IMG/VR virus record: IMGVR_UViG_2928826531_000001 | Location: 1 to 64,000 of that record | DNA from: a virus | Lineage: Duplodnaviria; Caudoviricetes | Reading direction: 5' to 3' (one strand) | DNA: 64,000 nt | Shown here: piece by piece, positions 10,722-27,577 of the stretch | How the letters are laid out: each line of letters opens with the position of its first letter | How positions within the stretch are numbered: position 1 is the first letter of the stretch | The notes under the pieces: model-generated | The model's input: only the letters and a program-made list of their open reading frames with translations | Told to the model about the DNA's origin: nothing | The model's database searches: none | Program-made: the position numbers and the translations under genes

Positions 10722-11195
10722 CGGGCTGTTGGATGCGGTCTCGGGCGGAGCCGCTTCGTGGCGCGCGGGCTCGGGGTTGGGTATGCTCGATAGCCCCCCA
10801 ATCTGGCGTCATCCGCTTTACCGTTACCGCCTAGAGCACGCTCGCCCGGGTCCTTGCGCCGAGCATCATCATGGGGAGTGCTTCCAAACATTCCTGGTTG
10901 CTTGCGGCAACTTTGCGTGCGTTGGATCGCTCTCGCCCTTGCGACCGCCTTACATGTGCCAGTGATTTTGCTCGGCAAAGCGATTGTACATATTTGGAGG
11001 TGCGCGGGTACACCAATAGCTTGTGGAAAGCTGACGGATGCTGTTGCATGATGAATGGCAAAGAGCAACTTTGTGGGCGGTGCCGTGTAACCGAGTGGTT
11101 GTAACTGAAGGCCTCGATGGCTCCGGCTACTGATAGCGACTACTGCGTGGAAGCTGCGGGGCTTAGTACTTCATAAGCGACACCGATTCTTTTTT

Positions 11196-11894
11196 GTGGA
11201 GGGTGGAGTGCGCGCGCCATTGCAATCTATGATGGTATTTATTACCGTTCCGTGGCTGGCCTTTAGTGTCACTCATGTGCAGGCTGAAACCAAAGCGGCT
11301 TGCAGCGTAGACGCTCCCCCAGCTAGCTGTGCAGGGTTGTTTGCCGTTGATGCCACTGGATCAGTGCCAGCTACGGAAAAGCTGGTAAACACTCCTAATC
11401 CGAAATGCGGAGATGGACGCGTATTCGACTACGTAGGTATCTTGAAAGACAGTTTGGCCAAAATGGTTGATGCCAAGAAAATGGCGGACGCATCGGCCGA
11501 TCTTGCCAAAGCCACCGTGCATTTTTTATCTAAAGAAGCTAAGGACAAGCTAGGTGGTGATATCGCAACGGGCATCTGGAGGAATTTTTCCGAAAAAACA
11601 AACGAAGGGAATTGCATTACTCTGTCCGTAATAGTACCGAACAACGCTGAAGTTGTTGGATATCGGATTGTTGCTGGGGAGAGCGGTGGCTCCATGAATA
11701 AATGCCAAGTTGGGCTGGACTGTGGCGTTGGCTACTCCCGATTCCTTCGCGAGCCGGTGGCCGCAATAGAAGAGCAAGGGGTTAAGAGTTACATGACGAC
11801 ATTTATGAACTGGGCGCACGATCGGCAGCGTGATGCACGGTTGGTTATATTCTTCAAAACGATCGATGGGAAGCCGCCCCCGATTGCAATGTGA
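11196..11894 (+). CDS. secreted Cys-rich hypothetical protein (moron, paralog 1; start uncertain)
   Basis: Lower GC, signal peptide ending VQA, C-terminal FMNWAHDRQR motif. Confidence 0.7.
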   Translation: MEGGVRAPLQSMMVFITVPWLAFSVTHVQAETKAACSVDAPPASCAGLFAVDATGSVPATEKLVNTPNPKCGDGRVFDYVGILKDSLAKMVDAKKMADASADLAKATVHFLSKEAKDKLGGDIATGIWRNFSEKTNEGNCITLSVIVPNNAEVVGYRIVAGESGGSMNKCQVGLDCGVGYSRFLREPVAAIEEQGVKSYMTTFMNWAHDRQRDARLVIFFKTIDGKPPPIAM

Positions 11895-11898
11895 GTGC

Positions 11899-12594
11899 AT
11901 GATGCGTCTCATCAGATTGATTGCGAGTTCATTGCTCCCGGGATGTATAATTCTTGGCATTGCCCATAACGGCCACGCGGGATCACGCACCGTGCGCTGG
12001 TGCGAGTACGATCCTAAAAGGACCTGTGTAGCTGGAGAATACGCAACAGTCATCGAAGTCCCGATACCGAATGGCAATTACGTTCAATCTTCGACGCCGT
12101 CATGCCCAAGTAACGACTTTTCGGTGCAGGGAAATCGCGAAAATTTTGTGGTCGGCATCGTTCGCAAGTCCAGTCAGAAGTGGCGTAAGGAAATACGAAA
12201 TTCTGCTGGATCCTTAAATGACTTGGTCTCAAGTCGCGACTATACGGACATCCCCAGCCCCTCCATCCCAGGGTTCGGTGGGGCGGAACATGCGGTGTGT
12301 TCTGCACTTGTAGCTGCTATTCCCCATGACGCTCAGGTCCAGGGAGTGCATCTTGGCTTCACCGATGCTAAGGGCACCAGGGAGTGTAAGCCTTCTGCCG
12401 AGTGCGAATATGCTAGATTCATCGCTCCGCCAAACGTGAGGAGAATACAATTGCTCTCTCGGCCCGGCATTCAAGTAGTTGATGCTTTTTTTATGAATTG
12501 GTCTCACGACCGGAACAGAATTGCATGGATAGCGGTTTTTTACAGTTTTAAAACCGGAGAAATGCCGAAAGCCATTTCGCCGGGCCCTATGTAG
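11899..12594 (+). CDS. secreted Cys-rich hypothetical protein (moron, paralog 2)
   Basis: Lower GC, signal peptide ending GHA, C-terminal FMNWSHDRNR motif. Confidence 0.7.
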   Translation: MMRLIRLIASSLLPGCIILGIAHNGHAGSRTVRWCEYDPKRTCVAGEYATVIEVPIPNGNYVQSSTPSCPSNDFSVQGNRENFVVGIVRKSSQKWRKEIRNSAGSLNDLVSSRDYTDIPSPSIPGFGGAEHAVCSALVAAIPHDAQVQGVHLGFTDAKGTRECKPSAECEYARFIAPPNVRRIQLLSRPGIQVVDAFFMNWSHDRNRIAWIAVFYSFKTGEMPKAISPGPM

Positions 12595-12861
12595 TAATGA
12601 ACTGTAGATTAGGGTCGAAAATTCGCCGATATTTCGGAGGTTGCCCCGATACAGGCGCTTGCGGGCCAGTTTGACTGAGAAGTCGCCGTGCGAACAGTAA
12701 GGGTTTGTGCTCTTTTCAGCGGTGAGAAAAGAGCCCGAGCTTGGGATGGACCCGGAGCGGGTGCGAGACGTGCTCTATGGCATCGATGCCGGGTCCGAAG
12801 GGATCACGATCCGTAAGCCATAGGCGAGCGGGCGCCAAAAACCCTCATCCGGGGGTGCGTG

Positions 12862-13227
12862 TTACGCCGGTTGCCGCTCGGCCAAGAGCCGAATGACCTT
12901 TTTCGGAATCGGCCGGTGGCTGGCTTCCTCTGGGTGCGCCCATCGGCGGGTGTCCGACCTGGTGTAGCTGGTGCCCAGCTTCTCATTCAGCCAGTTGGCC
13001 GCGGCTTGCCATCCGCCCACGCTGTCGGCCCACGCCGCATAGTCTTCGGCCGGCAGCGTGGGTTGAGGTTTGCGTCGAGGGGCCTGGGGAGAGGGTTCGC
13101 AAGGTTCATCCTCCGCCTCAACGATGACGGCAATCACGGCCACGCCGTCGGGGGTCATGACGGGGGCGGGAAGACCGGCGCGCTTGGCGCGGGCGGAGAG
13201 TTCGGCGAAGGTCATCGTCTCAGGCAT
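12862..13227 (-). CDS. putative DNA-binding regulator
   Basis: C-terminal HTH-like region (GGWQAAANWLNEKLG...DTRRWA...RPIPKKVIRLL); apparently leaderless promoter carrying operator repeats. Confidence 0.6.
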   Translation of the reverse strand: MPETMTFAELSARAKRAGLPAPVMTPDGVAVIAVIVEAEDEPCEPSPQAPRRKPQPTLPAEDYAAWADSVGGWQAAANWLNEKLGTSYTRSDTRRWAHPEEASHRPIPKKVIRLLAERQPA

Positions 13228-13233
13228 GGCGAA

Positions 13234-13262
13234 AACCTAGTATGGCGGAATGTATGGCGCAA
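13234..13262 (-). promoter_or_regulatory. sigma70-like promoter with tandem CGCCATAC repeats
   Basis: Minus strand TTGCGC-N17-TAGGTT, then 6 nt to the ATG; the -35/spacer region reads CGCCATACATTCCGCCATAC. Confidence 0.6.
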
Positions 13263-13313
13263 GCGCGGTGCGTGGCGCCACACCGAAAACCCTCACCCGG
13301 GCTCCAAAAACCC

Positions 13314-13802
13314 TCAGCGGGGGTGCGTCCGCTTCAGGGCGTAAACGGTCCAGATCAGCGACGCGATGGCCTTGAGGGTGTAGGCGCCTTCCTCGTCCAG
13401 GCTCAGCCCGAAGTGGTCCAGATCGGACAGGCGGAACGCCGTACCGCTCACGGCGATGAACACGGACTCCGCGTTCCGCCACCCAGCGATCTCACCATAT
13501 GGAGTGAAAACCCGCAGTGCATCGGCCGGAACTTCGACATTCGCCGGCTGGCCATTGCCCACGGCCCGGAACCGCGGATCATCCCGCAGCCTTTCCGCCA
13601 AGCTCCCGCGCAGGATGGACAGCGCCAGATTGGCCGCTTGCTGCAATGCTCCAGCGTCATCCCCAGCAGCGTTGAAGATCCGGGGGAAGATGTCGCCATA
13701 TGGCCCGGGCTTCTCGCCGGCTTCGCACATGGGATGGCCATCCTCAAGCCAGAACGACACCTTGGGGCACTGGGGCAGGTTCAGAAAAGCGATGTGTGCC
13801 AT
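13314..13802 (-). CDS. hypothetical protein
   Basis: 162-aa ORF co-oriented with its neighbours. Confidence 0.55.
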   Translation of the reverse strand: MAHIAFLNLPQCPKVSFWLEDGHPMCEAGEKPGPYGDIFPRIFNAAGDDAGALQQAANLALSILRGSLAERLRDDPRFRAVGNGQPANVEVPADALRVFTPYGEIAGWRNAESVFIAVSGTAFRLSDLDHFGLSLDEEGAYTLKAIASLIWTVYALKRTHPR

Positions 13803-13919
13803 TTTGCGTGTCCAAAGCTGAAAGGTTGCGGGAAGGTCAGTAGAGGGCTGGCGGGAGCTTGTCCACTCCCCAAAAACCCCCGCCGGGGGTGCGCGTCCGA
13901 AAAACCGCGCCGGGGGTGC

Positions 13920-15938
13920 TCAGGCATCAATGACGACGATCCGGGTTGAAACACCGGTGCCGCTTTCCTGGAAGGAACCGGCCGGAAGCCGTTCCGAGGT
14001 GCCGCCCACGCTGTCGAGCCAAGCCCGGAACTCCTCTGCCTTCCGATCGGAGCGGAAGAAGGGGCTTTCCGCCATGATAGCTACCAATCGGCCGCCGGGC
14101 TTCAGCATGCCGAAGGCGCGCCGAACATGGTCGGTATCTGCCAAGCCTTCAAAGGGCGGGTTCATACCGATACGGTCGTATTGCCCTTCATGTTCGAAGA
14201 AGTCCCATCCCGCCAGGGTGTAGCCCTTGGCGTTCAGGAGGTTGCGCAGGGTGCCGTTAATCTCCAGCACCGTCACGCCGTCTTTGCCCACGGTCTCCGC
14301 CATGACGTCGGCGATATCGCCCGCACCGGCGGAAGGCTCAAGCACTGAATGGCCGGGCCGCAGGTCCAGCAGGTCAATCACGCGCCGCGCCAAGCTGGCG
14401 GGGGTGCGGAAGAAACCGGGAATCTTGCGGCCCAGCAGATCCCGTAAAGCGGCTTTGATCGGATCGGCCTTCGGCGCATCGCTGGAGAGTTCCACGAACC
14501 GCGCCGCAGCTTCCCGCAGCTGGCCAGTGGTCAGGATCCCCATAGCGCGCAAGCGGTGGCCGTCGTCATCCGCTGGAAACTCGATATGCACCAGATCGGC
14601 CGCGGTTGCCTTCCGGCCCTTCCGGTCAATCTGTTCCGGGTAGCTCAGCCCGGAATCCGCCCTATAGCAGGCGCGGCGGATGAGGGAGCGGAACAACTCG
14701 GATTGTTTGGCCGTGCTCACCTTCGCCAAGGCGCCGGCGGTGCCGTCCTGCTGCGCTTCACCGATGGCGCGGAGAGTGCGCGCCAAAGTGATTTGGCGTT
14801 GCGCGTCGACTTCTACGCTGGCCGCCATGCTGGCGCGCCGTGGCGTGTTGGTCAGGCGATCGCGGGAGAGCACCTCCTGGGCGCGCGCTTCGATCCGATC
14901 CGCCAAGGCGAACAGTTTATTTTGAGTCCCAAAAACCTCCGGAGGGGGTGCGGCATGCGTCGATTCCGCCGCGTAGGGACTCTCCGCACTCTCCGGCTTG
15001 CCCGTGCCGGGCCCGTCATCCGGGCCGGCGGGCGGAGTGTCGGAACCGGCCAGCAGATCGACCAGGGAGGCGCGCACCTCGCTTTCACGAGACAGGGGGA
15101 AGATCCATCCGCTGGCTTGGCGATGCCAGAACGGGGCAAGCCCGGAAACGGCGGACTTGATCCGGTCTTTATGGGCCAGGGTTTCGCCCTTCACGATGAT
15201 GGACTTTTCCGAGTAGGGCTCAATCCGCAGGGGAGCAGCCCCGGCGGAAACCGGGGGTGCGCTGGTCTCGACAATCGTCGGCCCGTTCACAGCCGCGCGG
15301 ACTTCGGTGCACACCTCGGCGCGCGCCTCCTCCAGCGACTCGGCCCGGACTTCGGTGCGCCGTGTGGCTACGCGCGCGGGCTTGGCTATGATCGCTTTAG
15401 GCTTGATGGTGACGGACCGCGGAACGGACAGGATCCAAGCCTTGTGCGTCTGCTCCAGTTCCCACGCGAATTTGACATCGAGGTGATAATTCGTATTGAA
15501 ATAGTCCGTCATGGAATCGGACTTGTCATAGCGCCACTGCGACGCAATCGCCTGCAGGATGTCGGAAAGCGCCTTTGCCGCATCGGTCATCCGCTGCTGA
15601 GCCTCGTACGGCGCGTGAAAGCCCGCGCATTCGTGCGGGTGGTCCGCCTGCCAACGGACATTCTCCGGGTTGAGGATCAGAAACGGCACCGCTTGGATCT
15701 CGACCGTCACGGAACCATGGTGGGGAGAGCGGACGGAGATCTTGACGCCCTGGGGAATGGTGCCGGATTTCTCCGCTTCCTTGAGCGCCGCGCGGATCAG
15801 TTTGTTTCGGTCCGCGTCGCGCATGTGTCGGCCGTCGCGCTCCATGAGACCGCCGAAGGGATACAGGCTTTGCAGCGCGTCCGCGCGGTCATGCTTGGGA
15901 AGGGCGGCAAGGTCGGCAAACTTCACGGTGCTGCGCAT
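13920..15938 (-). CDS. polyvalent protein: LPD29-like N-terminus + small domains + C-terminal N6-adenine DNA methyltransferase
   Basis: GVKISVR...YDKSDSMTDYFNTNYH; YSEKSIIVKGET..HKDRIK...GWIFP; GFFRTP, VLEPSAGAG, MNPPF, LKPGGRLVAIM, LP.GSF.ESGT.V. GGAG RBS before ATG 15938. Confidence 0.88.
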   Translation of the reverse strand: MRSTVKFADLAALPKHDRADALQSLYPFGGLMERDGRHMRDADRNKLIRAALKEAEKSGTIPQGVKISVRSPHHGSVTVEIQAVPFLILNPENVRWQADHPHECAGFHAPYEAQQRMTDAAKALSDILQAIASQWRYDKSDSMTDYFNTNYHLDVKFAWELEQTHKAWILSVPRSVTIKPKAIIAKPARVATRRTEVRAESLEEARAEVCTEVRAAVNGPTIVETSAPPVSAGAAPLRIEPYSEKSIIVKGETLAHKDRIKSAVSGLAPFWHRQASGWIFPLSRESEVRASLVDLLAGSDTPPAGPDDGPGTGKPESAESPYAAESTHAAPPPEVFGTQNKLFALADRIEARAQEVLSRDRLTNTPRRASMAASVEVDAQRQITLARTLRAIGEAQQDGTAGALAKVSTAKQSELFRSLIRRACYRADSGLSYPEQIDRKGRKATAADLVHIEFPADDDGHRLRAMGILTTGQLREAAARFVELSSDAPKADPIKAALRDLLGRKIPGFFRTPASLARRVIDLLDLRPGHSVLEPSAGAGDIADVMAETVGKDGVTVLEINGTLRNLLNAKGYTLAGWDFFEHEGQYDRIGMNPPFEGLADTDHVRRAFGMLKPGGRLVAIMAESPFFRSDRKAEEFRAWLDSVGGTSERLPAGSFQESGTGVSTRIVVIDA

Positions 15939-16129
15939 TGGGCGGACTCCAGGCGATAGGCGGCCGAGTGACGGCGCCAAAGTGGTTTGACTGGGTTTGA
16001 AAAACCGCGGTGGGGGTGACCCAAAAGCCGCGCCGGGGTGTCCCCTACCGGGGTATCGATCCGGTTTCCGAGCAGCCCGGCATGCCATCGGGACCGCTGG
16101 GGAGCCGGCCCGAAGGCCGGTGCGGGCGA

Positions 16130-16315
16130 TTAGCGGACCACGTCCACCAGAAGTCGGGTACCGCCATAACTCCCAGGACCGCGCAAGCGGTTGTGCATGT
16201 CGGCACTCTGCAACTCGCCTTGCCACGCGCTCACGCTGTAGGGGATCCGGCGGATCTCCGTTTTGTTGTCGGCAACGTCGACCGCGTAGACGACTACGAA
16301 TTTCGGGTTGTCCAT
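16130..16315 (-). CDS. small hypothetical protein
   Basis: GGAG RBS; MDNPKFVVVYAVDV... Confidence 0.5.
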   Translation of the reverse strand: MDNPKFVVVYAVDVADNKTEIRRIPYSVSAWQGELQSADMHNRLRGPGSYGGTRLLVDVVR

Positions 16316-16319
16316 GACG

Positions 16320-16739
16320 TCAGCACTCCACACGGGCTTCAGCAACAGCCGCGCGTGCCGCGGCGATGACGAGCACGGCAAACTGACTATGGTTCGGATC
16401 CGATGCGGCGATTCGCTCCAGAGTGGCGAGCATTCGCGGTGCTGCAGCATTCATCGCGGCTTTGGTGGCATTGTGTTCCCGAAGCCTTCCCATCCACTCC
16501 GCGTCACGCGCGGCCGCATCAGGCACGGCGCGGCGAGAAGACGCCGTTTCGTTTGCCATCATTTCCGCCGCGACCTTGGCCGGGTTGCGCTTGGCCTTGG
16601 TGGCGTCCGAGCTGGTAGGGTAGGCGTAGGACGTCAGGCCGGTTTCCGTGTCGCCAGCGAGAAACCCGCCTTCGGGAGTGTGCATGTAGAGGATGGTCAC
16701 TGTCTGATCTCCGCTAAGCGGCGTCGCCGCGTTCTTCAT
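16320..16739 (-). CDS. hypothetical phage protein
   Basis: C-terminal AAAPRMLATLERI...ARAAVAEA phage motif; probable leaderless start just after TTGCCA-N18-TACATT. Confidence 0.65.
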   Translation of the reverse strand: MKNAATPLSGDQTVTILYMHTPEGGFLAGDTETGLTSYAYPTSSDATKAKRNPAKVAAEMMANETASSRRAVPDAAARDAEWMGRLREHNATKAAMNAAAPRMLATLERIAASDPNHSQFAVLVIAAARAAVAEARVEC

Positions 16740-16743
16740 GCCC

Positions 16744-16866
16744 AAATGTATGGCGTTGTGGTGCGTGCTGGCAACGGGCGAATGCACCACAAAGATGCAT
16801 AGCGTTCATGCGCAGAATGTATGGCATTCAGGATTTACAGGGAAGCGCTAAAACGCCATACATTCC
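16744..16866. promoter_or_regulatory. divergent promoter region with three AATGTATGGC motifs
   Basis: AAATGTATGGCG 16744, GAATGTATGGCA 16815, inverted CGCCATACATTCC 16854. Confidence 0.7.
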
Positions 16867-16911
16867 CCACACAACGCGGCGCCCAAGGCGCCCAAGCTGG
16901 GGATCTCGAAC

Positions 16912-18960
16912 ATGTCGCACGTCGTTACTGACACCGCCGCTCTTCTGGCCCAAATTGCCGAGCTACAGGCACAGCTTGCCGCGGCCGGTTCCGCTCCGCT
17001 TGCCAAGCCGAAGGCCGCGCGCAAGCCGCGCAAGCCCAAGCTGGTCAAGCTTCCGGAACTGGCCACGGTCCGCGTGACCTTCGCCGACGGCGTGACGATG
17101 CACACCAACGCTTCCCACGCATTCGAAGACGGGACGGTCGACACCTCTCGCGCCGTTGCCTATGCCGAGTCTGTGCGCCGTAACAACGCGGCCGGTTATG
17201 CGACGGAGAGCGGATCCACCCTGTCCGGCAATTGGGAATGGGTGAATACGGAAAAGGGGTGGCGCCTTCGGCCGGTTGCGGATGTCCCGACCGTGACGGA
17301 AGTCCATGTGCTGACCCAAGCCGAACAGGATGCTTTGCGTGAGGAACATCGCGTTTGGTTCCGCGGCGCGGTCCCTGCAAATGCGGAGATCGCGGCTGCG
17401 GCTTCCTGGAGCGCGCGGGTTGAAGCTACGGGCAATGATGCCGCCGCGGAAGCCGTTCACACGGAAGCGGCTGCCGAGGAGGTGGCCGAAACTTCCGTTT
17501 CGTGCGAAGGCGCTGACAACCCGTTGCATGTCATCCGCGGCGATGTCGACCGCACGGTATCAGGCCGGATGGAAATTTGCTCGGCTGCCCTGGCGGATAC
17601 GGCCTATGGCCGTGCGCGTGCCGATGCCGTGCGAAACGCCATTACGGCGCGCGGCGGTTCGGAACAGGATGCCGCCGCGGCCATGGTCCGCGCCATCGGC
17701 GACTATGAAGGCGGAACCATGCCGCCGGCCGGCAAGGCGCGTGAGCTGGTCTGTGCGCAAGTCGCGGCGGAGTGTGGCGATACCGAAGGCGCGGCACCAA
17801 TGGCCAGCAAGCCCGAATCCCTTGGCGCGGCCATGGTGCACCATGCCGCCCCCACCTGTCCGCTTTACTTGGAAGGATACGACGGCGACGCCAACCCGGA
17901 CGCAGCGCCGGAGGTGTCGCGCTATGCGGCCTTTGCCGCGCGTCATGGGATGGCCGCTCTGTGCGTGGTTGGGCTGCTGTCCATCCTGTCCGGCCGGTAT
18001 CTGCGCCGCATGATCGAACACGCGGCGGAACGGGTTGCCGCGCGGTCCGGCATCGTCTCGCTTGACGAGGTGGGAATCTACATCGCGGCCAGCATGACGC
18101 GCCCCGGCAAGCCCGGGAAGGCGCCGCGGCCAGTTTGGGAGATCTCCGGGGATACCAAGGGGTATGCGGACTGCATCAAAGCCATTGGCGCGAAATGGTG
18201 GGGCGGCAAGTGGTCCACCTGGAATGATCCGACTGCGGCGCTTGTGGCGGAGATCAACGCCAATGGTGGACGCCGCTCGTTCGCCGAACGTCTGGACGTT
18301 ATCCGGGAACGCGCTGCCGAACGGGCGGACCGGTTGGAGGAGCGCGCGGAACGAGTCACGGCGGAAGCGGGCCGGCGGTATAGGGCTGCGAAGTCCCTGG
18401 CCAGCTTCATTCCCATGGGGCAGCCGATCTTGGTGGGGCACCACTCCGAAGGCCGCCACCGTCGCGACCTGCGGCGCATTGAAAGCGGCATGCGGAAATC
18501 CTTCGAGTTGAGCGGCAAGGCAGACGGTCTGCGGCGCCGCGCGGCGACGGCCGAACAGACGGCCGAAGGCCGGACCGATCTGCGGTATCTGGCCAACCGG
18601 TTGAAGGAGGCGGAAACCAACCTGCGCGACATCGAACGTCGCTTGAACGGCACGAGCCGGAAGGAGCCAGCCGGCCCGATGAGCGATGATCGGCGCGCCT
18701 TCCTGGAGAAGCGCAAGGCGGAGTATGCGGAACGCGCGGCCTATTGGCGTGCCCAAGTCGACGCAGCCGGCGGCATCCCGTCTAAGGCACAGTTCAGCAA
18801 GGGCGGCACGGTGCAGTATGGCGGCCAGTGGTATCCCGTCGCCCGCGTCAATCGGGATACCGTCACGGTGTCGAATTGGCTTGGCGTGGCGTCGCTGACC
18901 TTCCGCGTTCCGCTCGCCCGCGTTTCCGGTTATCAGGCACCCGCGGCCATGGCCGCATAG
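16912..18960 (+). CDS. DUF3560-containing polyvalent protein
   Basis: ERAAERADRLEERA...IPMGQPILVGHHSEGRHRRDLRRI..GMRKS.E...KA; R.LANRLKEAE..LRDIERRL. Confidence 0.9.
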   Translation: MSHVVTDTAALLAQIAELQAQLAAAGSAPLAKPKAARKPRKPKLVKLPELATVRVTFADGVTMHTNASHAFEDGTVDTSRAVAYAESVRRNNAAGYATESGSTLSGNWEWVNTEKGWRLRPVADVPTVTEVHVLTQAEQDALREEHRVWFRGAVPANAEIAAAASWSARVEATGNDAAAEAVHTEAAAEEVAETSVSCEGADNPLHVIRGDVDRTVSGRMEICSAALADTAYGRARADAVRNAITARGGSEQDAAAAMVRAIGDYEGGTMPPAGKARELVCAQVAAECGDTEGAAPMASKPESLGAAMVHHAAPTCPLYLEGYDGDANPDAAPEVSRYAAFAARHGMAALCVVGLLSILSGRYLRRMIEHAAERVAARSGIVSLDEVGIYIAASMTRPGKPGKAPRPVWEISGDTKGYADCIKAIGAKWWGGKWSTWNDPTAALVAEINANGGRRSFAERLDVIRERAAERADRLEERAERVTAEAGRRYRAAKSLASFIPMGQPILVGHHSEGRHRRDLRRIESGMRKSFELSGKADGLRRRAATAEQTAEGRTDLRYLANRLKEAETNLRDIERRLNGTSRKEPAGPMSDDRRAFLEKRKAEYAERAAYWRAQVDAAGGIPSKAQFSKGGTVQYGGQWYPVARVNRDTVTVSNWLGVASLTFRVPLARVSGYQAPAAMAA

Positions 18961-19014
18961 TTTCCCCTCTGCATAGCGCCTCGTCCTTCCCCAGCTTGGG
19001 CAAGGCGCCAAACT

Positions 19015-19097
19015 AAGCCCGGACGGCCGCCGCGCCTTCCGGGCTTTTCTTTGTCCGCGCATCCCACGCCCGCCGGCCTTCCGCCGCGCGGGCTTTT
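19015..19097 (+). terminator. two tandem intrinsic terminators
   Basis: AAGCCCGGA...TCCGGGCTTTTCTTT and GCCCGC...GCGGGCTTTT. Confidence 0.75.
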
Positions 19098-19372
19098 CGC
19101 GTTCCGGATCTGCCGTCCGGACTGGACCCTGCGCGAGCCGGGCACCCTGGCGCGCTTGCTTGGCTGGCCATGCCGTGCGCCGATCGATTGGCGGCCATCG
19201 GCGCCTAGGCGTCCGGAGACCGGCCCGATCTCTGCCTTTGGCGCCGTCCGTGCAGAAGCCCGGCAGAGGCGCACGGAGCGCCTCCAGCGCGCGCGGCTCC
19301 GCAGATACCGCCCTAAACTAGACCGCATCAGGCGCGCGCCCGAGCGCCCGTGCGCCCTATCCTGGCGACGTT

Positions 19373-19594
19373 GGGTCCTTCCCAGACCAAACCCCCGCGG
19401 GCGGGGCCGCTACCCGTTTTCGAGCGTTTTCCAGCGTTGAAACCAACGTTACAGCCCGTAACGGCGCAGGACCATGGTCCTAGAGCATGTCGCAACGCTC
19501 TGAAATGAAATAATAAAATGTTTCTGCCATTCCGGTCGCGCGTAACGCGCCTCTGTAACGTGGGTGTGCATCGTGTTACGCGCCGGGGCGTTAC
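19373..19594 (+). other. putative lambda-like cos packaging site (cosQ-cosN-cosB)
   Basis: GGGTCCT (the lambda cosQ heptamer) at 19373; GGGCGGGGCCGC at 19399; six GTAAC/GTTAC repeats flanking an AT-rich tract (19501-19523); the terminase is GpA-type. Confidence 0.7.
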
Positions 19595-20019
19595 CGATCG
19601 TCGGCTTCAGCGGCGTCCGTGACCATCTGCACGACAGCCTCAGGGCGCTCCAGCATCACGCCGATGGCGGCGTCCGCTGACTGGCGGTAGTGCGGCCAAT
19701 CGGCCGCGATCAGGTGGGCGTGCATGATCGCCTTGCCCTCGGTCTCCCGTAGCCCGCGTTCGAGAGACACGAAGCCGCGAAGGTGTAGGATGGCCTGAGC
19801 GGCCCAATGTGGCGTCATGCCCAGGAACTGCCCGAGCGCCTTGTCTGAGCCGTAGAGTTGGCCGATTCGCTCAAGCACGCGCTCCAGCGCTTTCAACTCC
19901 TCATCGCTCATGCGTCCTTCACCGCCGCGGATGTCGTGGGCACAAAGGGCGAAGGCAACGCGATCCCGGAAGGACTTGGGCTCCGGGTGGATGGCGCGGC
20001 CGAAATCGTCGATATCCAC
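19591..20019 (-). CDS. hypothetical protein
   Basis: AGGAGG RBS; 142 aa. Confidence 0.7.
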   Translation of the reverse strand: MDIDDFGRAIHPEPKSFRDRVAFALCAHDIRGGEGRMSDEELKALERVLERIGQLYGSDKALGQFLGMTPHWAAQAILHLRGFVSLERGLRETEGKAIMHAHLIAADWPHYRQSADAAIGVMLERPEAVVQMVTDAAEADDR

Positions 20020-20034
20020 AGCGAGCCTCCTTTC

Positions 20035-20286
20035 CTAGATATTGACCTTGCCGCGGAGCGCTTCGTCCACCCGCTGCCCCCACTCACTCTTGGGGAACGA
20101 GTGAGCGTAGAGGAAGGCGATCAGCTCGCCAGTCGAGAAGCCGCCGCGGCACCCGCCGGTGATCATGGCTTCCTGGGGCCCGTACACGGCCTTGTAGACC
20201 TCGTAGGCCCGCAGCGTGACTGCCTTGGAAATCTTCCCGCCCTTGCGGTCTACCGTCTGGACGGGGTGAAGCTCTACTTCGGTCAC
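20035..20286 (-). CDS. hypothetical phage protein
   Basis: AYEVY..VYG.QE......RGGF..GEL pattern; coupled start. Confidence 0.7.
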   Translation of the reverse strand: MTEVELHPVQTVDRKGGKISKAVTLRAYEVYKAVYGPQEAMITGGCRGGFSTGELIAFLYAHSFPKSEWGQRVDEALRGKVNI

Positions 20287-20681
20287 GGCCGGCGCTCCTC
20301 AGATATAGGTGGCTGGCCAAGAGCGGCATCGAGCCGGATCATGGCATCAAGAATGGCGTTGCTCCGCTCCATGAAGCGCGCCCTCTCCGGCGTGTCTGGC
20401 TGGCTGCGGTCGTCGTTTGTCATGCGCTGGAGGACAAAGCCGAAGGCGGTGCGGTCGGCTTCAAGATCGGCCCTCATCCGGTCGCGCTCGGCCAGCAAAC
20501 GCGCTCCGGCTTCGGAGGAGGTGACGAGCATCTTTGCAGCCTCGTTGCGCTCGGCCTCGGCCTTCTCGATGCCACGGCGCAGGTCTTCGATCAGATTGGC
20601 GGCCCCGAGCATATCGGTGTCAGCGCCGTTGCAGTTGGACAGGGCGCAGCGGTTGCGCAGGCGTTCGACGATGTCGGCCAT
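20283..20681 (-). CDS. hypothetical phage protein
   Basis: MADIVERLR...AANLIEDLR phage motif; AGGAG RBS. Confidence 0.7.
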   Translation of the reverse strand: MADIVERLRNRCALSNCNGADTDMLGAANLIEDLRRGIEKAEAERNEAAKMLVTSSEAGARLLAERDRMRADLEADRTAFGFVLQRMTNDDRSQPDTPERARFMERSNAILDAMIRLDAALGQPPISEERRP

Positions 20682-20702
20682 GCTGAGCTCCTTTGGAGTT
20701 GG

Positions 20703-20870
20703 TCACTTCGCCCGCGGGCCGAAGGTGGTAATCCATGCCCACACGAACCCTATGGCGCTGATCGAGCCGAGCAAAGGGCCGACCCACCAGACGGACGTTG
20801 ATGCGTCCCGCATGCAGGCGATCTGCTCAACGGAGCCGGGCGGGAGGTCGAAGCATTCACGGCCAAGCAC
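20703..20870 (-). CDS. small membrane protein (55 aa, not in the ORF track)
   Basis: GGAG RBS + GTG; ...SVWWVGPLLGSISAIGFVWAWITTFG. Confidence 0.45.
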   Translation of the reverse strand: MLGRECFDLPPGSVEQIACMRDASTSVWWVGPLLGSISAIGFVWAWITTFGPRAK

Positions 20871-20901
20871 GGCGGCGCTCCATTAATAGAGAGGCAGGCG
20901 A

Positions 20902-21177
20902 TCATCCGATGTTGCGGGCGATGAGAAAGTGAGCAGTGATCGCTCCGTCTTCAGCGGTCTCGATCTTCTCGATCAGGACTTCAGACTTCGCGCCAACCTC
21001 CTTGGACACGGCCTTCATAAGCCCGTCCAGGGCGGCCAGAGAGCGGCCGATGGTCTTGGCCTGCATGAGCGAACCGTCCTTGGGGTGGAAGGACATGGCG
21101 AAGCGGCTGTCCTTCGTCGCGTCGGTGACGAACTCGGGGCTGAACTCAACGCCACAGTTCGGGCATTTGGCGGACAT
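20902..21177 (-). CDS. hypothetical protein (N-terminal CxxC)
   Basis: MSAKCPNCG; co-oriented cluster. Confidence 0.65.
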   Translation of the reverse strand: MSAKCPNCGVEFSPEFVTDATKDSRFAMSFHPKDGSLMQAKTIGRSLAALDGLMKAVSKEVGAKSEVLIEKIETAEDGAITAHFLIARNIG

Positions 21178-21207
21178 GGTTTGGGCTTCCGGATGTTGAC
21201 AGAGAGT

Positions 21208-21456
21208 TCAGGAGGCCTTGGTGACGGTGTAGCTCTTGGGCACCGCGGCGATGTAGACGATGTCCCCGTTGGGGTAGTGCAGTTCCGCTTTCTCGCCACG
21301 CTCGATGCGGTTGAAGATGGAGTCCAAGTCCATCTCCAAAGCCCTTGCGCGCTTCTCCACGATTTCCAGGCGGGCGCGTAGTTCGGCAACTTCCTGCATA
21401 TGGCGCCATGCCTCTCGGTTGCTGTCCGGGTGAGCGATGTTGACGTGATCGGCCAT
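21208..21456 (-). CDS. hypothetical protein
   Basis: GGAG RBS before MADHVNI; coiled coil. Confidence 0.65.
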   Translation of the reverse strand: MADHVNIAHPDSNREAWRHMQEVAELRARLEIVEKRARALEMDLDSIFNRIERGEKAELHYPNGDIVYIAAVPKSYTVTKAS

Positions 21457-21485
21457 GTCGGGGCTCCGGTCGTTCGGTTGATGGT

Positions 21486-21701
21486 TCAGGGGCGGAACAG
21501 GCGCCGCTTCCTCGGTCCGGCGCCGTAGGACCGTCGCTCCTTGCGGTTGCCGCCCAGAACAAAGTCGGGCTCCGGTGCGCTGCGGGTGAGGCGGACGACC
21601 TGACCAGCCTCGCGCATGTCGGCGGGTCTGTCGTTCAGCAGTTGCCCCAGGCCGACGGCTAGAGCGGTGGACAGTCTGGGCATGACCAGGCACTTACGCA
21701 T
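21486..21701 (-). CDS. hypothetical protein
   Basis: Fills a gap in the minus-strand cluster; start uncertain. Confidence 0.4.
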   Translation of the reverse strand: MRKCLVMPRLSTALAVGLGQLLNDRPADMREAGQVVRLTRSAPEPDFVLGGNRKERRSYGAGPRKRRLFRP

Positions 21702-21742
21702 GGGCGGGAGGTCTCCAGGGATTGGGATGACTCGAAGCCATT

Positions 21743-22009
21743 TCAGGCAGCCGCTGGGAAGTCTTCCGTATCGAGCCGCTCGCCCGGCAGGAGTGCCCTC
21801 TCGGCCCCCTTGCGGGTGAGCCAAAAGAGGTCGTCGTCTCCGGTGTGCTTGCCCCACCGCACCTGCGCATAGCCCTGCGCGACCATGTCGATCCACTCTG
21901 GGTGATCGTGGTGGAGTTCTCCGGAAACAAAGCGGTTCCGGTAGGAGACCGTGCGCCGGCCGTCCAATCCGAGGGCGTGGCGCGCGAGTGAAATCTGTCG
22001 ATTGGTCAT
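21743..22009 (-). CDS. conserved phage hypothetical protein
   Basis: Q..LARHALGL...SYRNRFV...W..MV..G.A...F.LT..G...L.PGERLD.EDF. Confidence 0.75.
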   Translation of the reverse strand: MTNRQISLARHALGLDGRRTVSYRNRFVSGELHHDHPEWIDMVAQGYAQVRWGKHTGDDDLFWLTRKGAERALLPGERLDTEDFPAAA

Positions 22010-22021
22010 GGAAGCGCCTTC

Positions 22022-22357
22022 CTAGAATGCAGACTCAGTCGCTGGCGTGATCGGCTGATACCGTTTCCCGAATCCGTTGCAGGTTCCGCACAACAGCGTG
22101 GCCCCCAGAAATTGGCGCGATGGGCGCCCACCCTTGCCGCCACACCCGTCGCAGTCCTGAAGCGAATAGGCATGCTCTGGAATGACCGCTCTGCCTTTCG
22201 GTGTGATGCGCCAATCGCCTGTGACCAGCCCGGCGCGATGCATGGTGTTGACCCGGATGCCATGCATCTCTGTGGAGATCAAAGTGCCGGTGTCTTGGTG
22301 CTGTGCCAGCAACTGCAGGAATTCCAGTTCGCGCTCCGACAGGTCACTGCGCTTCAT
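22022..22357 (-). CDS. wHTH-like protein with a DnaJ-type zinc knuckle
   Basis: WRITPKGRA; CDGCGGKG...CGTCNGFG. Confidence 0.65.
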   Translation of the reverse strand: MKRSDLSERELEFLQLLAQHQDTGTLISTEMHGIRVNTMHRAGLVTGDWRITPKGRAVIPEHAYSLQDCDGCGGKGGRPSRQFLGATLLCGTCNGFGKRYQPITPATESAF

Positions 22358-22376
22358 GGTGTGGCGGTTCTTCTGA

Positions 22377-22955
22377 TCAGAAACGGACCAAGGAAGTCTT
22401 CCCGCCGAGATAGAGCGGATGTTTGGGAGAGCCGTCCTTATTGTTGCCGAAGCACCAAAGGTCGATGCCGCGCTGACGGAGCGCCTCCACCGTTTCCCGG
22501 GCCGCAGACACAAGCGGGCGCGGGACCTTGCCAAAGCATACGACAACGCGCTCGGCGCTTTCGGCCGCCTGAAGGATGGTCGGCAGGTTGTCCGGTGAGC
22601 ACGCCACCACGCCCGGTTTGCTGAGGTGGGCTGGTGCCGTGGCTCGGTAGTCGCCGACGTTGCACTTCACGAACCCGGTGTAGCCTTCCCGGACGGTGAA
22701 GCCCCATTCGCGCGTAACTGTCGGATCGTTGGCGGTCGCGTCGGCCGTGCTCGGGTTCATTCCGATCAGGAGCCAGTGCCGGGCTGGAAATACGTCGCCA
22801 ATCCACCGACGTAGGACCCTGCGATAGCGCCCGCACTCGGAAAACACGGCATCGCCGCGCAGGCCGGGCGGAAGGGCGGTCTTCACCTTTCCGCCGGGGT
22901 CGTGAGTGTCGAGCTTGGTCGGCAAATCGAACAGGCCGAAATCGAAGGCGGTCAT
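22377..22955 (-). CDS. DUF1643 domain protein
   Basis: AVFSECGRYR..L.R...IGMNPSTAD...NDPT...N...YRAT.P...G.NKDGSPKHPLY. Confidence 0.9.
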   Translation of the reverse strand: MTAFDFGLFDLPTKLDTHDPGGKVKTALPPGLRGDAVFSECGRYRRVLRRWIGDVFPARHWLLIGMNPSTADATANDPTVTREWGFTVREGYTGFVKCNVGDYRATAPAHLSKPGVVACSPDNLPTILQAAESAERVVVCFGKVPRPLVSAARETVEALRQRGIDLWCFGNNKDGSPKHPLYLGGKTSLVRF

Positions 22956-23045
22956 GATGCAACTCGCTGATTCATCCGCGCGCTGTGCTGCGCGCATTAG
23001 TCCGTAGCGTCACGCTTGCGTGGCTTCCGTGACCGGCCTCACCGC

Positions 23046-23342
23046 TTAGTGCCGGCTGCCCAAGAAAAGGCGCCCGAAGCTAGTCAGGAAGTCCGGTTCA
23101 GTCTCCCACACGCGCGTTCCATCCGGGTTGACGCGCGTCCTATTAAAACTCATCCCGCAGCCACCCGCGGAAAAATCAAGGCTGCCTCGCTGTTTGGAAG
23201 CCGAATTGCCATAGACTGGAACACAGATCGGGTGCGTCTCGAAAGAGAGGTCCGCACCGTCGACAGTGATCACGTAATCCGCGCCGCCAGTTAGAAGGAC
23301 GGCGTGGCTCCCGTCGCGCAGGCTGATGGTGGTCTCGCGCAT
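23046..23342 (-). CDS. hypothetical protein
   Basis: GGGAG RBS before MRETTISL. Confidence 0.5.
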   Translation of the reverse strand: MRETTISLRDGSHAVLLTGGADYVITVDGADLSFETHPICVPVYGNSASKQRGSLDFSAGGCGMSFNRTRVNPDGTRVWETEPDFLTSFGRLFLGSRH

Positions 23343-23373
23343 GCTCTGCTCCCGGCTGCTGGCTGGCCATCGG

Positions 23374-23763
23374 TCAGATCGCGCCATTTTCCGTGGCGAT
23401 CCGGTCGGCCGTTTGGCGCTTGGCACGCCCACGCGGGATGCGCTCCTTGATCTTTGCGTCCGGCCGTAGGACGACGCCGGCTCCGTTGGCCGTCCCCGAC
23501 TCGCCGGCGGCGACGAAATCGCATCCGGCTGCCTCCAGGGTGCGCTTCACCGTTATGACGGTGCCCATCTTCGCGCTGATCAACTCGCCGTCGAGGCGGG
23601 TCAGATCGTTGATGGTGTTCCGATGCAAGCTGGTCGCTGCCGCGAGGTCATCTTCGGACCATCGCAGCGCCGCGAGCGCCTGCCGGACTTGAGCCCCCGT
23701 CAGCACGGCTGTGGCCCCCTGGCCAAGAACTGGTCCCTGCACGAGGCGCCGTCCTTTCGTCAC
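23374..23763 (-). CDS. XRE-family HTH regulator
   Basis: LTGAQVRQA.AAL.WS.DDLA.A......TI...LEAAG..F...G.GV.L (alphaproteobacterial XRE subtype). Confidence 0.8.
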   Translation of the reverse strand: MTKGRRLVQGPVLGQGATAVLTGAQVRQALAALRWSEDDLAAATSLHRNTINDLTRLDGELISAKMGTVITVKRTLEAAGCDFVAAGESGTANGAGVVLRPDAKIKERIPRGRAKRQTADRIATENGAI

Positions 23764-23790
23764 CTGTCCCTAGGCAAAATGCCTTTCTTC

Positions 23791-23828
23791 GGGTTGCATC
23801 GTATCCCCTGAGGGTATAAAGTCAACCC
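23791..23828. promoter_or_regulatory. overlapping divergent sigma70 promoters inside an inverted repeat
   Basis: Plus strand TTGCAT-N17-TAAAGT; minus strand TTGACT-N16-TACGAT; flanked by GGGTTG/CAACCC. Confidence 0.65.
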
Positions 23829-23846
23829 TGAACGATGGAGGTGAGC

Positions 23847-24854
23847 GTGGCCGAGAACAGTGCAATCGAGTGGACGGACCACACGTTCAATCCGTGGATC
23901 GGCTGCACCAAGGTCAGCCTCGCGTGCGACAACTGCTACGCCGAGACGGAGCGCGCGGTGACCTGCCTCGGCGTGACATGGGGCGTCGGTCAGCCGCGTC
24001 ACCGCACCTCCGCCAGCACTTGGAAGCAGCCGCTCGCCTGGAACCGCAAGGCCGCCAAGCTGGGCATCCGCTACAGGGTGTTCTGCGCCTCGCTCGCCGA
24101 CGTCTTTGACGCCGAAGTGCCGGACGAGTGGCGGCTGGACCTGTTTCGGATGATCGTGCAGACGCCGCACCTGGATTGGCTGCTGCTGACCAAGCGGCCG
24201 AAGGTGGCGCAGAATTTCCTTTCCAGCTTCGCCATGGCGCCCGGCAAGAGCGGGTTCCTGACCCACAACGGTGATAAGCCTAAGGGTTGGGGCGGCACGG
24301 GTGAGATCATCCACGGCGTTGGCCAGGAGCAGATTTGGCCGCTTCCGAACGTCTGGCTCGGCGCAACGGTCGAGAGTCAGGCAATGGCCGAGACACGCAT
24401 CCCGCATCTGCTGGCGACGCCCGCCGCGGTCCGGTTCGTCAGCATGGAGCCGCTTCTGGGACCGGTTGCGATGCGCCCATGGCTGCAAGGGATTCCGGCC
24501 GACGCCGCCCTGTCCAGTTACCGGCGCGTCGATTGGGTCATCGCTGGCGGCGAAAGTGGTGTGCACGCGCGCCCGTCGCATCCGGATTGGTTCCGCTCGC
24601 TCCGAGACGAGTGCATCGCCACGGGAGTCCCGTTCCTCATGAAGCAATGGGGCGAATGGGTGCCGCGCGGACCTGCGGACTGGGGATATCCAAGCGTTGA
24701 CGGAGTGCCGCGGATCCGCCTGACCAACGAAGGTCAGAACGGACACTTCTTGAACGCTGAAGGCGGCAACCCCGTCTGGATGAACCGCGCCGGCAAGAGG
24801 GTTGCTGGTCGCCTTCTCGACGGCGTGCTGCACGACGCCTACCCGACAGCCTGA
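23847..24854 (+). CDS. phage Gp37/Gp68 (DUF5131) radical-SAM-like protein
   Basis: SAIEWTDHTFNPWIGCTKVS.ACDNCYA (three-Cys motif), VFCASLADVFD, LLLTKRP, NVWLGATVE.Q, FVSMEPLLGP, WVIAGGESG. Confidence 0.95.
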   Translation: MAENSAIEWTDHTFNPWIGCTKVSLACDNCYAETERAVTCLGVTWGVGQPRHRTSASTWKQPLAWNRKAAKLGIRYRVFCASLADVFDAEVPDEWRLDLFRMIVQTPHLDWLLLTKRPKVAQNFLSSFAMAPGKSGFLTHNGDKPKGWGGTGEIIHGVGQEQIWPLPNVWLGATVESQAMAETRIPHLLATPAAVRFVSMEPLLGPVAMRPWLQGIPADAALSSYRRVDWVIAGGESGVHARPSHPDWFRSLRDECIATGVPFLMKQWGEWVPRGPADWGYPSVDGVPRIRLTNEGQNGHFLNAEGGNPVWMNRAGKRVAGRLLDGVLHDAYPTA

Positions 24855-24886
24855 ACAACTCAACGGATTATCGAAAGGAGAAGAGC

Positions 24887-25759
24887 GTGACGCGCATTCT
24901 GTTGGCCGCCCTCATGGTGGTCGCCACCTTCGCCGGCGCGAGCGCCGCCGACCTGCCCGGCGTGCGCCTGTGCACCGGCTCTGCCAAGGGCAACTACTTC
25001 TTCGCTGGCAGCGTCATCGCCCAGCAGGCCAAGGGCTCGCTGAAAGTCGATGTGATCGAGACCGCCGGGTCCATCGACAACCTGCGCAAGATGGAGGACG
25101 GCGCCTGCGACGCCGCCCTGGTCCAGTCCGACGCCTACGGCGTCTACAAGGACCGCAACCCGTCGTCGGCGCTGTCCATTGTGCGGGCTGGGGCGCTGTA
25201 CAAGGAATACGCCCACCTGCTGTGCAACAAGACGTCCGGCATCGACTCCGTGAAGGACTTGCGGAGCAACAAGGCCAAGCTGCTGACCGGTGATGCGGGA
25301 TCCGGCTCCGAGGTGACCTGGGCGACCTGGATCAAGATGGACAAGGACTACACAAAGGCGGCGACCGATCGCATTGGCGGCACGCAGGCGATTCTCCGCA
25401 TCCGCGATGGCGCCGAAGCTCAGTGTGCTCTGTTCATCAACGGGCTGAATTCCGCGCTGATGAAGCAAGTGAACGAGCAAGCGGGCGACCGGGTGAAATT
25501 GGTGCCCGTGAAGGACGGCGACTTCGCGAGCGTGAAGGACCCGGGGGGCAATAAGGTCTATTCGGCTGAGGACATCCCCGGCAGCACGTACAAGGCCCTG
25601 CAGTCCGGCTTCTTCTCCTCCGCTGTCCCGACCCTTGCCGTCGAGGCCCTGGTCGTTCTGCGCGCGGATTGGGCGGAGCAGAACAAGCGTGGTCTGGACG
25701 AACTGTCCGACGCGGTTCTGCGGGCGACGCCGGCCATCAAGCAACGGGTCGACGGCTAA
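24887..25759 (+). CDS. TAXI-family TRAP solute-binding protein
   Basis: Signal peptide; TGS..GNY; T.GSIDNL...CDAALVQSD; LY.EY.HL; I.SV.DL; GSGS..TW. Confidence 0.85.
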   Translation: MTRILLAALMVVATFAGASAADLPGVRLCTGSAKGNYFFAGSVIAQQAKGSLKVDVIETAGSIDNLRKMEDGACDAALVQSDAYGVYKDRNPSSALSIVRAGALYKEYAHLLCNKTSGIDSVKDLRSNKAKLLTGDAGSGSEVTWATWIKMDKDYTKAATDRIGGTQAILRIRDGAEAQCALFINGLNSALMKQVNEQAGDRVKLVPVKDGDFASVKDPGGNKVYSAEDIPGSTYKALQSGFFSSAVPTLAVEALVVLRADWAEQNKRGLDELSDAVLRATPAIKQRVDG

Positions 25760-25917
25760 TGCGCCTCGCCCTACGCCTCGGCGGCGCCTTTCTGGCGGCA
25801 ACAGTCATCGTGGTGGGTGACCTGACGTCCGGGCGGATCATGTCGTGCATCGTGGATGCCGGTCTCCTGGGCGGCATCTTCGTCCTGCTGGTCCCGCTGA
25901 CGATGAAGCCGGCCTGA
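25759..25917 (+). CDS. small two-TM membrane protein
   Basis: TAATG-coupled to the TAXI gene; two hydrophobic stretches. Confidence 0.6.
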   Translation: MRLALRLGGAFLAATVIVVGDLTSGRIMSCIVDAGLLGGIFVLLVPLTMKPA

Positions 25918-26068
25918 GCCGCGCGCCCTTCGTCCACAGTTCGCGCCTCGGCGCGCTCCAGGCCCCTTACTCGCGAGAGTGGGGCTTGAGGGCATGCCGG
26001 GGGTTCCGCTGAAACCCCGGCCGGGAGCGTGGTCCGGTACCAACGCAATCACGGAGACGACGCAGACC

Positions 26069-26470: not shown

Positions 26471-26573
26471 CCCATTCGGCCGCGTCGGGTGAGGTGTGTC
26501 CTCCCCGGCCGGCAGGCCACAGCCGACCTCGTGGAGTCGGTTTTGGCATGCCGAGTGGAAGAGGGGCTTCACA

Positions 26574-26759: not shown

Positions 26760-26764
26760 CCACC

Positions 26765-27574: not shown

Positions 27575-27577
27575 GTC

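Follow-up and report, generated by a model that had tools for sequence, protein, structure and literature searches.

The window analysed here is a stretch of 64,000 nucleotides (nt) of viral DNA (IMG/VR record IMGVR_UViG_2928826531_000001, positions 1 to 64,000), the first part of a separate contig, which is 95,602 bp long (G+C 0.648) and belongs to a genome of 9.7 Mb and 10 contigs. This replicon is an Azospirillum phage-plasmid, in which the genes of a lambda-like siphophage occur together with a plasmid initiator of the Rep3 type. It contains, at 12.8-19.1 kb, an island of about 6.5 kb, formed by a leftward operon of five genes and by a divergent gene for a 682-amino-acid (aa) DUF3560 protein. 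The operon comprises, in this order, a 126-aa open reading frame (ORF), a 61-aa ORF, a 672-aa fusion of an LPD29-like domain with an N6-adenine-type methyltransferase (MTase), a 162-aa ORF and a 121-aa ORF (Table 1). An earlier note, made from the letters of this DNA, had described a divergent, self-contained island of polyvalent proteins abutting a predicted cos site, closed by twin terminators and endowed with its own promoters, operator motif and oriented repeats; this observation is confirmed nearly in full, the cos prediction included.

Gene calls were based on the G+C content by codon position and on a codon model trained on the chromosome, and substitutions were counted against a prophage locus of Azospirillum brasilense CP059450.1 (L004), the DNA of which is about 80% identical over window positions 12895-15979 and 16099-16757. 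Codon statistics pick out the minus-strand genes 12862-13227, 13314-13802 and 13920-16226, the small ORFs in 16130-16790, and the plus-strand gene 16912-18960. The longest ORF at the MTase locus would code for 768 aa; it was rejected as the gene, since its first 96 codons contain indels and have no codon periodicity relative to L004. The presence of homologues of 672 aa, together with these aperiodic codons before Met-97, sets the gene limits reported in Table 1.

The 672-aa protein includes an LPD29-like domain (about residues 37-170), a small beta domain, a helical linker and the N6-adenine-type MTase domain (about residues 460-672), so that the predicted fusion is indeed present. In its C-terminal part, the S-adenosylmethionine-binding motif I, VLEPSAGAG, followed by the catalytic motif IV, NPPF, can be read in the translation. 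Residues 325-671 are 45% identical to annotated N6-adenine methylases of Vibrio and Shewanella phages, and over residues 462-671 there is about 51% identity with Pseudomonas phage F116-like proteins. Among the PHROG families, those of giant "DNA methyltransferase" proteins are matched with values down to E=8.8e-89; in Shewanella phage X14, the homologue is contained in a 2740-aa protein, beside the tailspike gene. The motifs and the annotations of the homologues point to DNA as the likely substrate of the enzyme.

The N-terminal part matched no Pfam family at E<=5, so a direct match to LPD29 (PF18847) was not obtained. A phmmer search with residues 1-230 against 1.84 billion representatives yielded 817 proteins at E<=1e-3, most of which are solo proteins of 140-250 aa, while some are giants of 2609-5308 aa. 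The query was aligned with 60 of the best 150 matches, the shorter proteins being chosen: 25 of these 61 aligned homologues match Pfam LPD29, with a best E of 5.6e-08, and the label "LPD29-like" is right by transitive homology. In the top Atlas clusters, with a score of 0.82-0.83, 28-37% of the members bear LPD29, which is a lead only. The same domain matches phrog_1926, annotated as "released from the phage upon host infection" (E=8e-12). With the AlphaFold model of this part (pLDDT 82.9), Foldseek gave nothing in the PDB at E<=1e-3, and the highest Z of a VIA-wide search was 5.5, for generic alpha/beta folds, with no convincing solved relative.

The product of the divergent gene, correctly assigned to DUF3560 from the start, consists of a 400-aa N-terminus of no assigned family, the DUF3560 domain, helical hairpins and a small C-terminal beta domain. 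Its model (pLDDT 74.4, from an 8-row alignment) displays long helical hairpins, a conserved GQPILVGHHSE loop and the terminal beta domain; Foldseek with this model gave nothing at E<=1e-3, and a literature search on DUF3560 gave no paper addressing its function. The full-length architecture is nearly unique, having 4 partial relatives in 5.8 billion clusters; tblastn with the 682-aa protein gave one weak match in 50,697 phage records, and matches in at least 5000 plasmid records, with 3796 among the matches listed being predicted conjugative.

Single-chain fusions of DUF3560 with the MTase, 658-668 aa long, are found in three other Azospirillum genomes (G032, G054 and G067); their N-terminal DUF3560 part is 44% identical, and their C-terminal MTase part 41% identical, to the island proteins. 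Two of them have an integrase as their neighbour, at one edge of an element integrated next to the nuo operon, while the third adjoins a ParB-like gene, with genes for a TrwB coupling protein and a TrwC relaxase farther along the contig. The occurrence of such fusions suggests that the two large genes of the island are functionally linked. Moreover, the fusions, the X14 protein and the TrwB/TrwC context fit the polyvalent-protein repertoire outlined by Iyer et al. 2017 (PMC5512222). The claim that the domains are polyvalent ones, typical of plasmid leading regions, stands in part, namely in that their families are shared with polyvalent proteins and with conjugative elements, as the plasmid matches indicate.

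The small genes of the operon, proposed as candidate new anti-defence proteins, are real, as the four minus-strand ORFs have a substitution pattern biased to the third codon position relative to L004 (Table 1). The 121-aa product, orf121, is 72% identical to its L004 counterpart and has no match in Pfam, PHROG or NCBIfam; it might conceivably be a candidate regulator. The homologues of orf162 are one at 70% and another at 29%, the latter in the phage G003; there was no family match, and the Atlas search gave no usable match, its model being poor (pLDDT 0.46). In orf61, which also matches no family, mismatches with L004 pile up at third codon positions (17 vs 9 vs 3-5). For the first gene of the operon, the third-position bias spans 16315-16764 and a 1-nt indel relative to L004 lies upstream of 16722; its start is most likely GTG 16700, preceded at a distance of 9 nt by GGAGA and represented by ATG in L004. 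The enrichment of GAA codons, previously noticed by eye, was borne out by counting: GAA/(GAA+GAG) is 0.53 in the island and 0.28 in 9 comparison genes, and this value, along with a lower third-position G+C, marks the island as foreign, acquired cargo.

The control elements are also proper to the island. The motif AATGTATGGC has four copies in the window, all within the island, at positions that are conserved in L004, and its 9-mer core has 4 copies in the 95.6-kb replicon, as compared with 6 in the remaining 9.6 Mb; the operator motif of the earlier note is, in this respect, real. When the motif is read in the orientation GCCATACATT, all four copies face the gene downstream and contain a -10-like TACATT. 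In the divergent region, the minus strand carries the promoter-like TTGCCA-18-TACATT, and L004 has TTGCAT-17-TACATT in the same place, although the surrounding DNA has diverged. The GCCATACATT motif may belong to a promoter specific to this module, or it may be an operator that overlaps the -10 region; a copy precedes the operon, orf121 and the DUF3560 gene. Family scans of the island ORFs detected no helix-turn-helix (HTH) or other Aca family.

The oriented repeats are five terminator-like copies between 12835 and 13919, placed singly or in pairs after orf121, orf162 and the MTase gene, and they form weak hairpins. Conversely, the two terminators at the end of the DUF3560 gene are strong (z -3.7 and -2.5), each with a U-tract, and the second one is retained in G003.

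Table 1. Features of the island, of the putative cos region and of the terminase and replication genes, in window coordinates unless stated otherwise.
Feature	Position	Strand	Remarks
Terminator-like repeat closing the leftward operon (CACCCCC..GGG + U-run)	12835..12862	-	families D2/D3; weak hairpin, z 0.5
orf121, last operon gene, orphan	12862..13227	-	codon-position 1/2/3 substitutions vs L004 0.24/0.13/0.44
GCCATACATT copy facing orf121	13249..13258	-	22 nt upstream of orf121 start; equivalent place in L004
Two tandem terminator-like repeats after orf162	13283..13326	-	
orf162, orphan	13314..13802	-	codon-position 1/2/3 substitutions vs L004 0.25/0.10/0.37
Two tandem terminator-like repeats after MTase gene	13869..13919	-	-29.5 kcal/mol, z -0.5
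LPD29-like + N6-MTase fusion, 672 aa	13920..15938	-	codon-position 1/2/3 substitutions vs L004 0.12/0.07/0.31
orf61	16130..16315	-	begins 4 nt past the stop of the upstream ORF
First operon gene, probably 126 aa	16320..16700	-	longest ORF extends to 16790
Divergent control region, three GCCATACATT copies	16745..16864		16754-16745 and 16825-16816 leftward, 16855-16864 rightward
682-aa DUF3560 protein	16912..18960	+	PF12083, E=3.5e-28, 98.6 bits (cutoff 27.2), residues 465-577
Twin intrinsic terminators ending the DUF3560 gene	19015..19046 and 19067..19098	+	-23.5 and -22.3 kcal/mol
21-nt block identical in G003	19321..19341	+	contains palindrome GGCGCGCGCC
cosQ-like GGGTCCT(TCC), then, 30 nt on, GC-rich cosN-like stretch	19373..19415	+	
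cosB-like array, 5 GTAACG/CGTTAC hexamers	19440..19595	+	flank one of the replicon's most AT-rich 40-mers
Terminase small subunit, TerS (phrog_57)	28739-29431	+	family match
gpA large terminase, TerL	29435-31465	+	family match
Rep3 initiator	contig 71731-72804		family match

As regards its distribution, the DNA of the island had no match in a search of the phage collection, and Azospirillum brasilense is the name borne by close homologues. The L004 prophage possesses a gpA terminase merely 22% identical to that of the window, despite the approximately 80% identity of the operon DNA, which indicates that the island is horizontally mobile as a module; in L004, too, the module lies on the cosQ side of a cos-like core. 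The divergent gene is different there: L004 positions 23943-26015 code for a 690-aa fusion with the DNA polymerase III beta-clamp (DnaN), in place of the DUF3560 protein, and the two products share just a 29-residue stretch. At L004 26060-26330, past the clamp-fusion gene and before the cos-like core, there are about ten copies of the palindrome TGTCCCAYRGGACA, an array that might serve as iterons, as a centromere or as operators. Immediately to the left of the island, the window has a low-G+C patch at 11000-12800 (0.52-0.54 vs 0.65), in which the ORFs 11196-11894 and 11830-12594 match no family and may be further foreign cargo of the same slot. The island contains no tRNAs, and its Rfam scan gave zero matches.

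The DNA to the right of the island was compared with the closest relative, G003:C27, another IMG/VR contig of 84,714 bp with a TerL 80% identical to that of the window. The 630 bp of the gap at 18,961-19,590 have their homologue directly upstream of TerS in this relative; a 590-bp gap right before its own TerS (phrog_57, E=5.5e-18) contains the counterparts of window 19067-19115, where the second terminator lies, and of 19321-19430, which is 73% identical and includes 21 nt without a mismatch. In the window, GGGTCCTT is followed, at a distance of 30 nt, by GC-rich DNA at about 19,395-19,415. In phage lambda (NC_001416), GGGTCCTT occupies positions 48473-48480, 30 nt before the physical right end (48502), and the left end opens with 12 GC-rich nt, after which come T-rich stretches; lambda 48473-48479 is what we take to be the 7-bp cosQ. 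PMC4669245 describes lambda cosQ as a highly conserved 7-bp element and cosB as TerS-binding R sites around an IHF site; a literature search for cosQ plus its letters gave no relevant paper.

Further evidence comes from the cos-like core, in which GGGTCCTTCC is unique in the replicon (22 copies occur in the other 9.64 Mb). The core is conserved in three Azospirillum prophages and in four further viral contigs, none of these four contigs ending there, and in L004 it lies between the clamp-fusion gene and TerS. Five of the 20 GTAACG/CGTTAC copies of the replicon fall within 150 bp, in the cosB-like array; the same place has four GTTGCGC copies in G003 and five or six GTTTCC copies in L004. Repeats differing in each phage would be expected if cosB co-varies with the diverged TerS (43% identical). 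The cosQ-like block, its spacing, the repeat array and the homology to G003 and L004 support the claim that cos abuts the island, which ends 400 bp left of cosQ, and make a lambda-type cos at about 19.4 kb very probable.

Other sites and markers were considered. A cos directly upstream of TerS was rejected, as the gap of 162 bp (28,577-28,738) has no homologue in G003, no repeat array, no AT-rich patch and no conserved core. The conserved element of the 19-kb gap is disfavoured as a late promoter, because in the window it would point into a convergent minus-strand block. The 21-mer GACCGCATCAGGCGCGCGCCC, tried as a marker in five more distant relatives, gave chance-level matches, none on TerL contigs and with similar controls; likewise, an 18-mer scan of the genome contigs gave 119+ unrelated GC-rich chance matches and was uninformative. 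The contigs of the probable source run continue through both candidate sites (19.4 and 28.6 kb), and are uninformative on virion ends.

In the closest relative, TerS is at cos (57607-58605) but is 5.6 kb away from TerL (64233), and the space between them is occupied by tightly packed genes, including DUF5131, TAXI-like and ParB-like ones. If the site at 19.4 kb is correct, cos would be separable from the small-terminase gene by several kilobases, and a lambda-type cosQ block would be conserved from the Escherichia coli phage lambda to Azospirillum phages. On the cosB side, window 19591-23763 contains about ten small minus-strand genes, among which DUF1643 (22377-22997) alone has a family; this block would be the first DNA packaged, and its G003:C27 counterparts are elsewhere, at 6.6-8.8 kb. 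Also between cos and TerS, a 163-aa protein (25979-26470) matches the Pfam Acb2/Tad1 hairpin domain (E=6.8e-07, 29.8 bits, cutoff 27) and is a possible cyclic-nucleotide sponge.

The island is, on balance, probably a horizontally exchanged counter-defence-type cassette, hosted in a cosQ-side cargo slot of a lambda-like Azospirillum phage-plasmid; counter-defence is, we infer, its most likely function. A sigma-70-like promoter with GCCATACATT would drive the leftward five-gene operon, a second copy preceding orf121, and a further copy would drive the divergent DUF3560 gene toward cos, where transcription would be halted by the two strong terminators. The orphan MTase would methylate the DNA of its own element, both in the plasmid state and during lytic growth, and the methylated virion DNA would survive restriction on reaching another host. 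Accessory anti-defence or DNA-handling roles, of the polyvalent-protein kind, may fall to the LPD29-like and DUF3560 domains and to the small orphans; polyvalent-protein domains are proposed as early-invasion effectors in PMC5512222. Early entry, due to the cos-proximal position, is a possible bonus, not the demonstrated reason for the location.

Several points weigh against this reading. The 672-aa protein has no match to Pfam N6_Mtase or N6_N4_Mtase, and its PCMT/MTS and NCBIfam matches are sub-threshold; family, fold and homologue searches yield no function for the four small ORFs, for LPD29 or for DUF3560. Restriction-site depletion, which the earlier note had proposed to check, was not found: the island has 174 6-bp palindromes, compared with 180 expected (O/E 0.96), the corresponding ratio being 0.87 in the whole replicon and 0.67-0.80 in the tail-gene region. 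In G003 the same slot is occupied by a HigB-like toxin/HTH pair and by an ATP-dependent DNA ligase, which are not anti-defence genes, so that the slot looks like a general cargo site. As to the cos side of the proposal, the site in the window is 9.3 kb from TerS, an unusual arrangement, instead of being directly upstream of it, and TerS directly precedes TerL in all five more distant relatives, a comparison that covers the TerS-TerL order alone.

The best-surviving alternative is that position is the point, as the earlier note had proposed: the island would be a phage "leading region", which enters first, is transcribed at once by the host RNA polymerase and disarms restriction and other defences. 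The structural premises hold, as the island is self-contained and mobile and lies beside a lambda-type cos, on the cosQ side, which lambda polarity would make the last packaged; in L004 the module is likewise on the cosQ side. Moreover, its domain families are common to conjugative elements. From the order cosQ-cosN-cosB, left to right, packaging would start rightward and the island would be packaged last. With last-in-first-out ejection, which PMC10287942 gives as the standard lambda model, it would enter first, the operon promoter preceding its genes, and transcription of the leftward operon would be co-linear with entry. However, the same article (Bong et al. 2023, PMC10287942) puts the polarity of lambda ejection in vitro near 50/50 from either end. 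The island is not depleted in palindromes, the nearest relative keeps other cargo in the slot, and the X14 homologue belongs to a giant protein beside the tailspike instead of an end-proximal operon. Furthermore, methylation after entry must race restriction, and a phage methyltransferase protects chiefly by methylating progeny DNA in the previous host, before packaging. The leading-region reading is partly supported and plausible, its functional half, immediate expression on entry, staying conjectural, and we regard early entry as rather unlikely to be the reason for the location.

The fullest version of this alternative, to be held only tentatively, would make a swappable cassette at the first-ejected end the true counterpart of a leading region: the GCCATACATT promoters would fire on naked entering DNA, the MTase fusion, the DUF3560 protein and four new anti-defence proteins would be delivered first, and this phage group would generally use the slot next to cos for counter-defence, as the recurrence of the module in an unrelated gpA-terminase prophage, again on the cosQ side, might suggest. 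If the island were expressed on entry, the leading-region logic of conjugative plasmids and of T7/T5 early entry would extend to temperate lambda-like phage-plasmids, and a positional rule, the cosQ side of cos, would become available for finding new anti-defence genes.

An improbable explanation is that the island works in lysogeny or in the plasmid state and serves the host-element pair, as a restriction-modification-like or other defence/addiction system (the MTase working with orf162 or the first ORF as nuclease and orf121 as controller) or as an epigenetic regulator. The island is indeed an independent unit, opposite to both flanking operons and with a weak terminator of its own after each gene, and its repeated element overlaps -10 regions, as in C-box-type control; similar cargo is present elsewhere, such as the HigB-like pair in G003 and the VWA/PP2C/kinase genes at contig 76.5-80 kb. 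However, family scans found no nuclease family or motif in any partner ORF (PADLOC was not searched), and the fusion of the MTase to a polyvalent-protein domain, and in relatives to DUF3560, better fits offensive repertoires. The weakest alternative, which we consider very improbable, is that both large proteins are packaged in the capsid and injected with the DNA like P1 DarB, acting in cis on the entering molecule, as Iyer et al. 2017 propose for phage polyvalent proteins, with DarB as the methylase archetype (PMC5512222), and as the phrog_1926 match and the giant X14 protein next to the tailspike would allow, but the genes lie outside the head/tail module, have own promoters unlike the late operon, and are devoid of the SF2 helicase partner of DarB-type methylases and of any MuF or portal-associated domain.

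The remainder of the replicon has phage and plasmid functions. The region 0-10.7 kb contains CII-like and HTH regulators, VRR-NUC, GapR, two MT-A70 methyltransferases and DUF1376; besides the terminase genes, the contig encodes a lambda-family portal, a protease-capsid fusion, a 1394-aa tape measure and a 3260-aa J-like protein, and endolysin-like and holin genes come after the tail genes, at contig positions 68091-69499. The earlier statement that the island takes the place of lysis genes between Q and cos is correct as to lysis, these genes being absent between the early region and the packaging genes; the Q part is unconfirmed, as family scans recognised no Q antiterminator upstream.

A low-G+C insertion of the tail gene region harbours a DUF3800-IX RNA (Rfam RF02968, 51.2 bits; window 45721-46413), which adjoins an opposite-strand DUF3800 gene, and an HTH-N6_Mtase gene (47012-47944). 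In the phage-plasmid backbone, VWA, PP2C phosphatase and protein kinase genes are in a row (contig C8 76511-79983; L002 12511-15983), and may represent a signalling or defence-like triad. The Logan contig covering the replicon (window 12000-31000; probable source run) has a word depth of 165, the others touching the stretch having 37-43; the difference hints that each chromosome is accompanied by several copies, or that induction occurs spontaneously, depth not being copy number.

Compared with known systems, the proposed cos resembles that of lambda in the position of GGGTCCTT, 30 nt before a GC-rich stretch, in the repeats around an AT-rich patch and in the gpA-type terminase; the array, with its putative TerS and IHF sites, matches the R3-I1-R2-R1 layout given in PMC4669245. 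It differs from lambda in the distance from TerS and in the letters of the predicted cohesive ends; moreover, the host of the island phage is an alphaproteobacterium with 65% G+C. The island shares with polyvalent proteins and P1 DarB the fusion of an LPD-type domain to an adenine-type methyltransferase, as well as the association of DUF3560 and of the same MTase family in fusions and giants. Unlike those, the island proteins have two to four domains, without an SF2 helicase or a Pfam-detectable LPD36, and are encoded in a promoter-driven operon of their own by cos, not in a structural or type IV secretion system module.

Plasmid leading regions, T7 gene 0.3 and the first-step-transfer DNA of T5 have counter-defence genes at the first-entering end, transcribed along entry. 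The island is similar in having counter-defence-type genes at the cos end, which would be read in the direction of entry; in contrast, a temperate cos phage enters as double-stranded DNA, with no single-stranded DNA promoters and no known stepwise entry. LPD29 genes also occur, according to PMC13551039, in Aca-regulated operons (aca4), which the island resembles in its small orphans and LPD29-type gene behind a promoter with a repeated element, while differing in the lack of a detected HTH/Aca family. Orphan phage methyltransferases, polyvalent-protein domains and early-entry anti-restriction are already known kinds, and the island is no new category; what it provides is four orphan ORFs that are conserved and two domains that are widespread but uncharacterised, the LPD29-like one with its 817 representatives and DUF3560 with its at least 5000 plasmid records, each tied to a methyltransferase.

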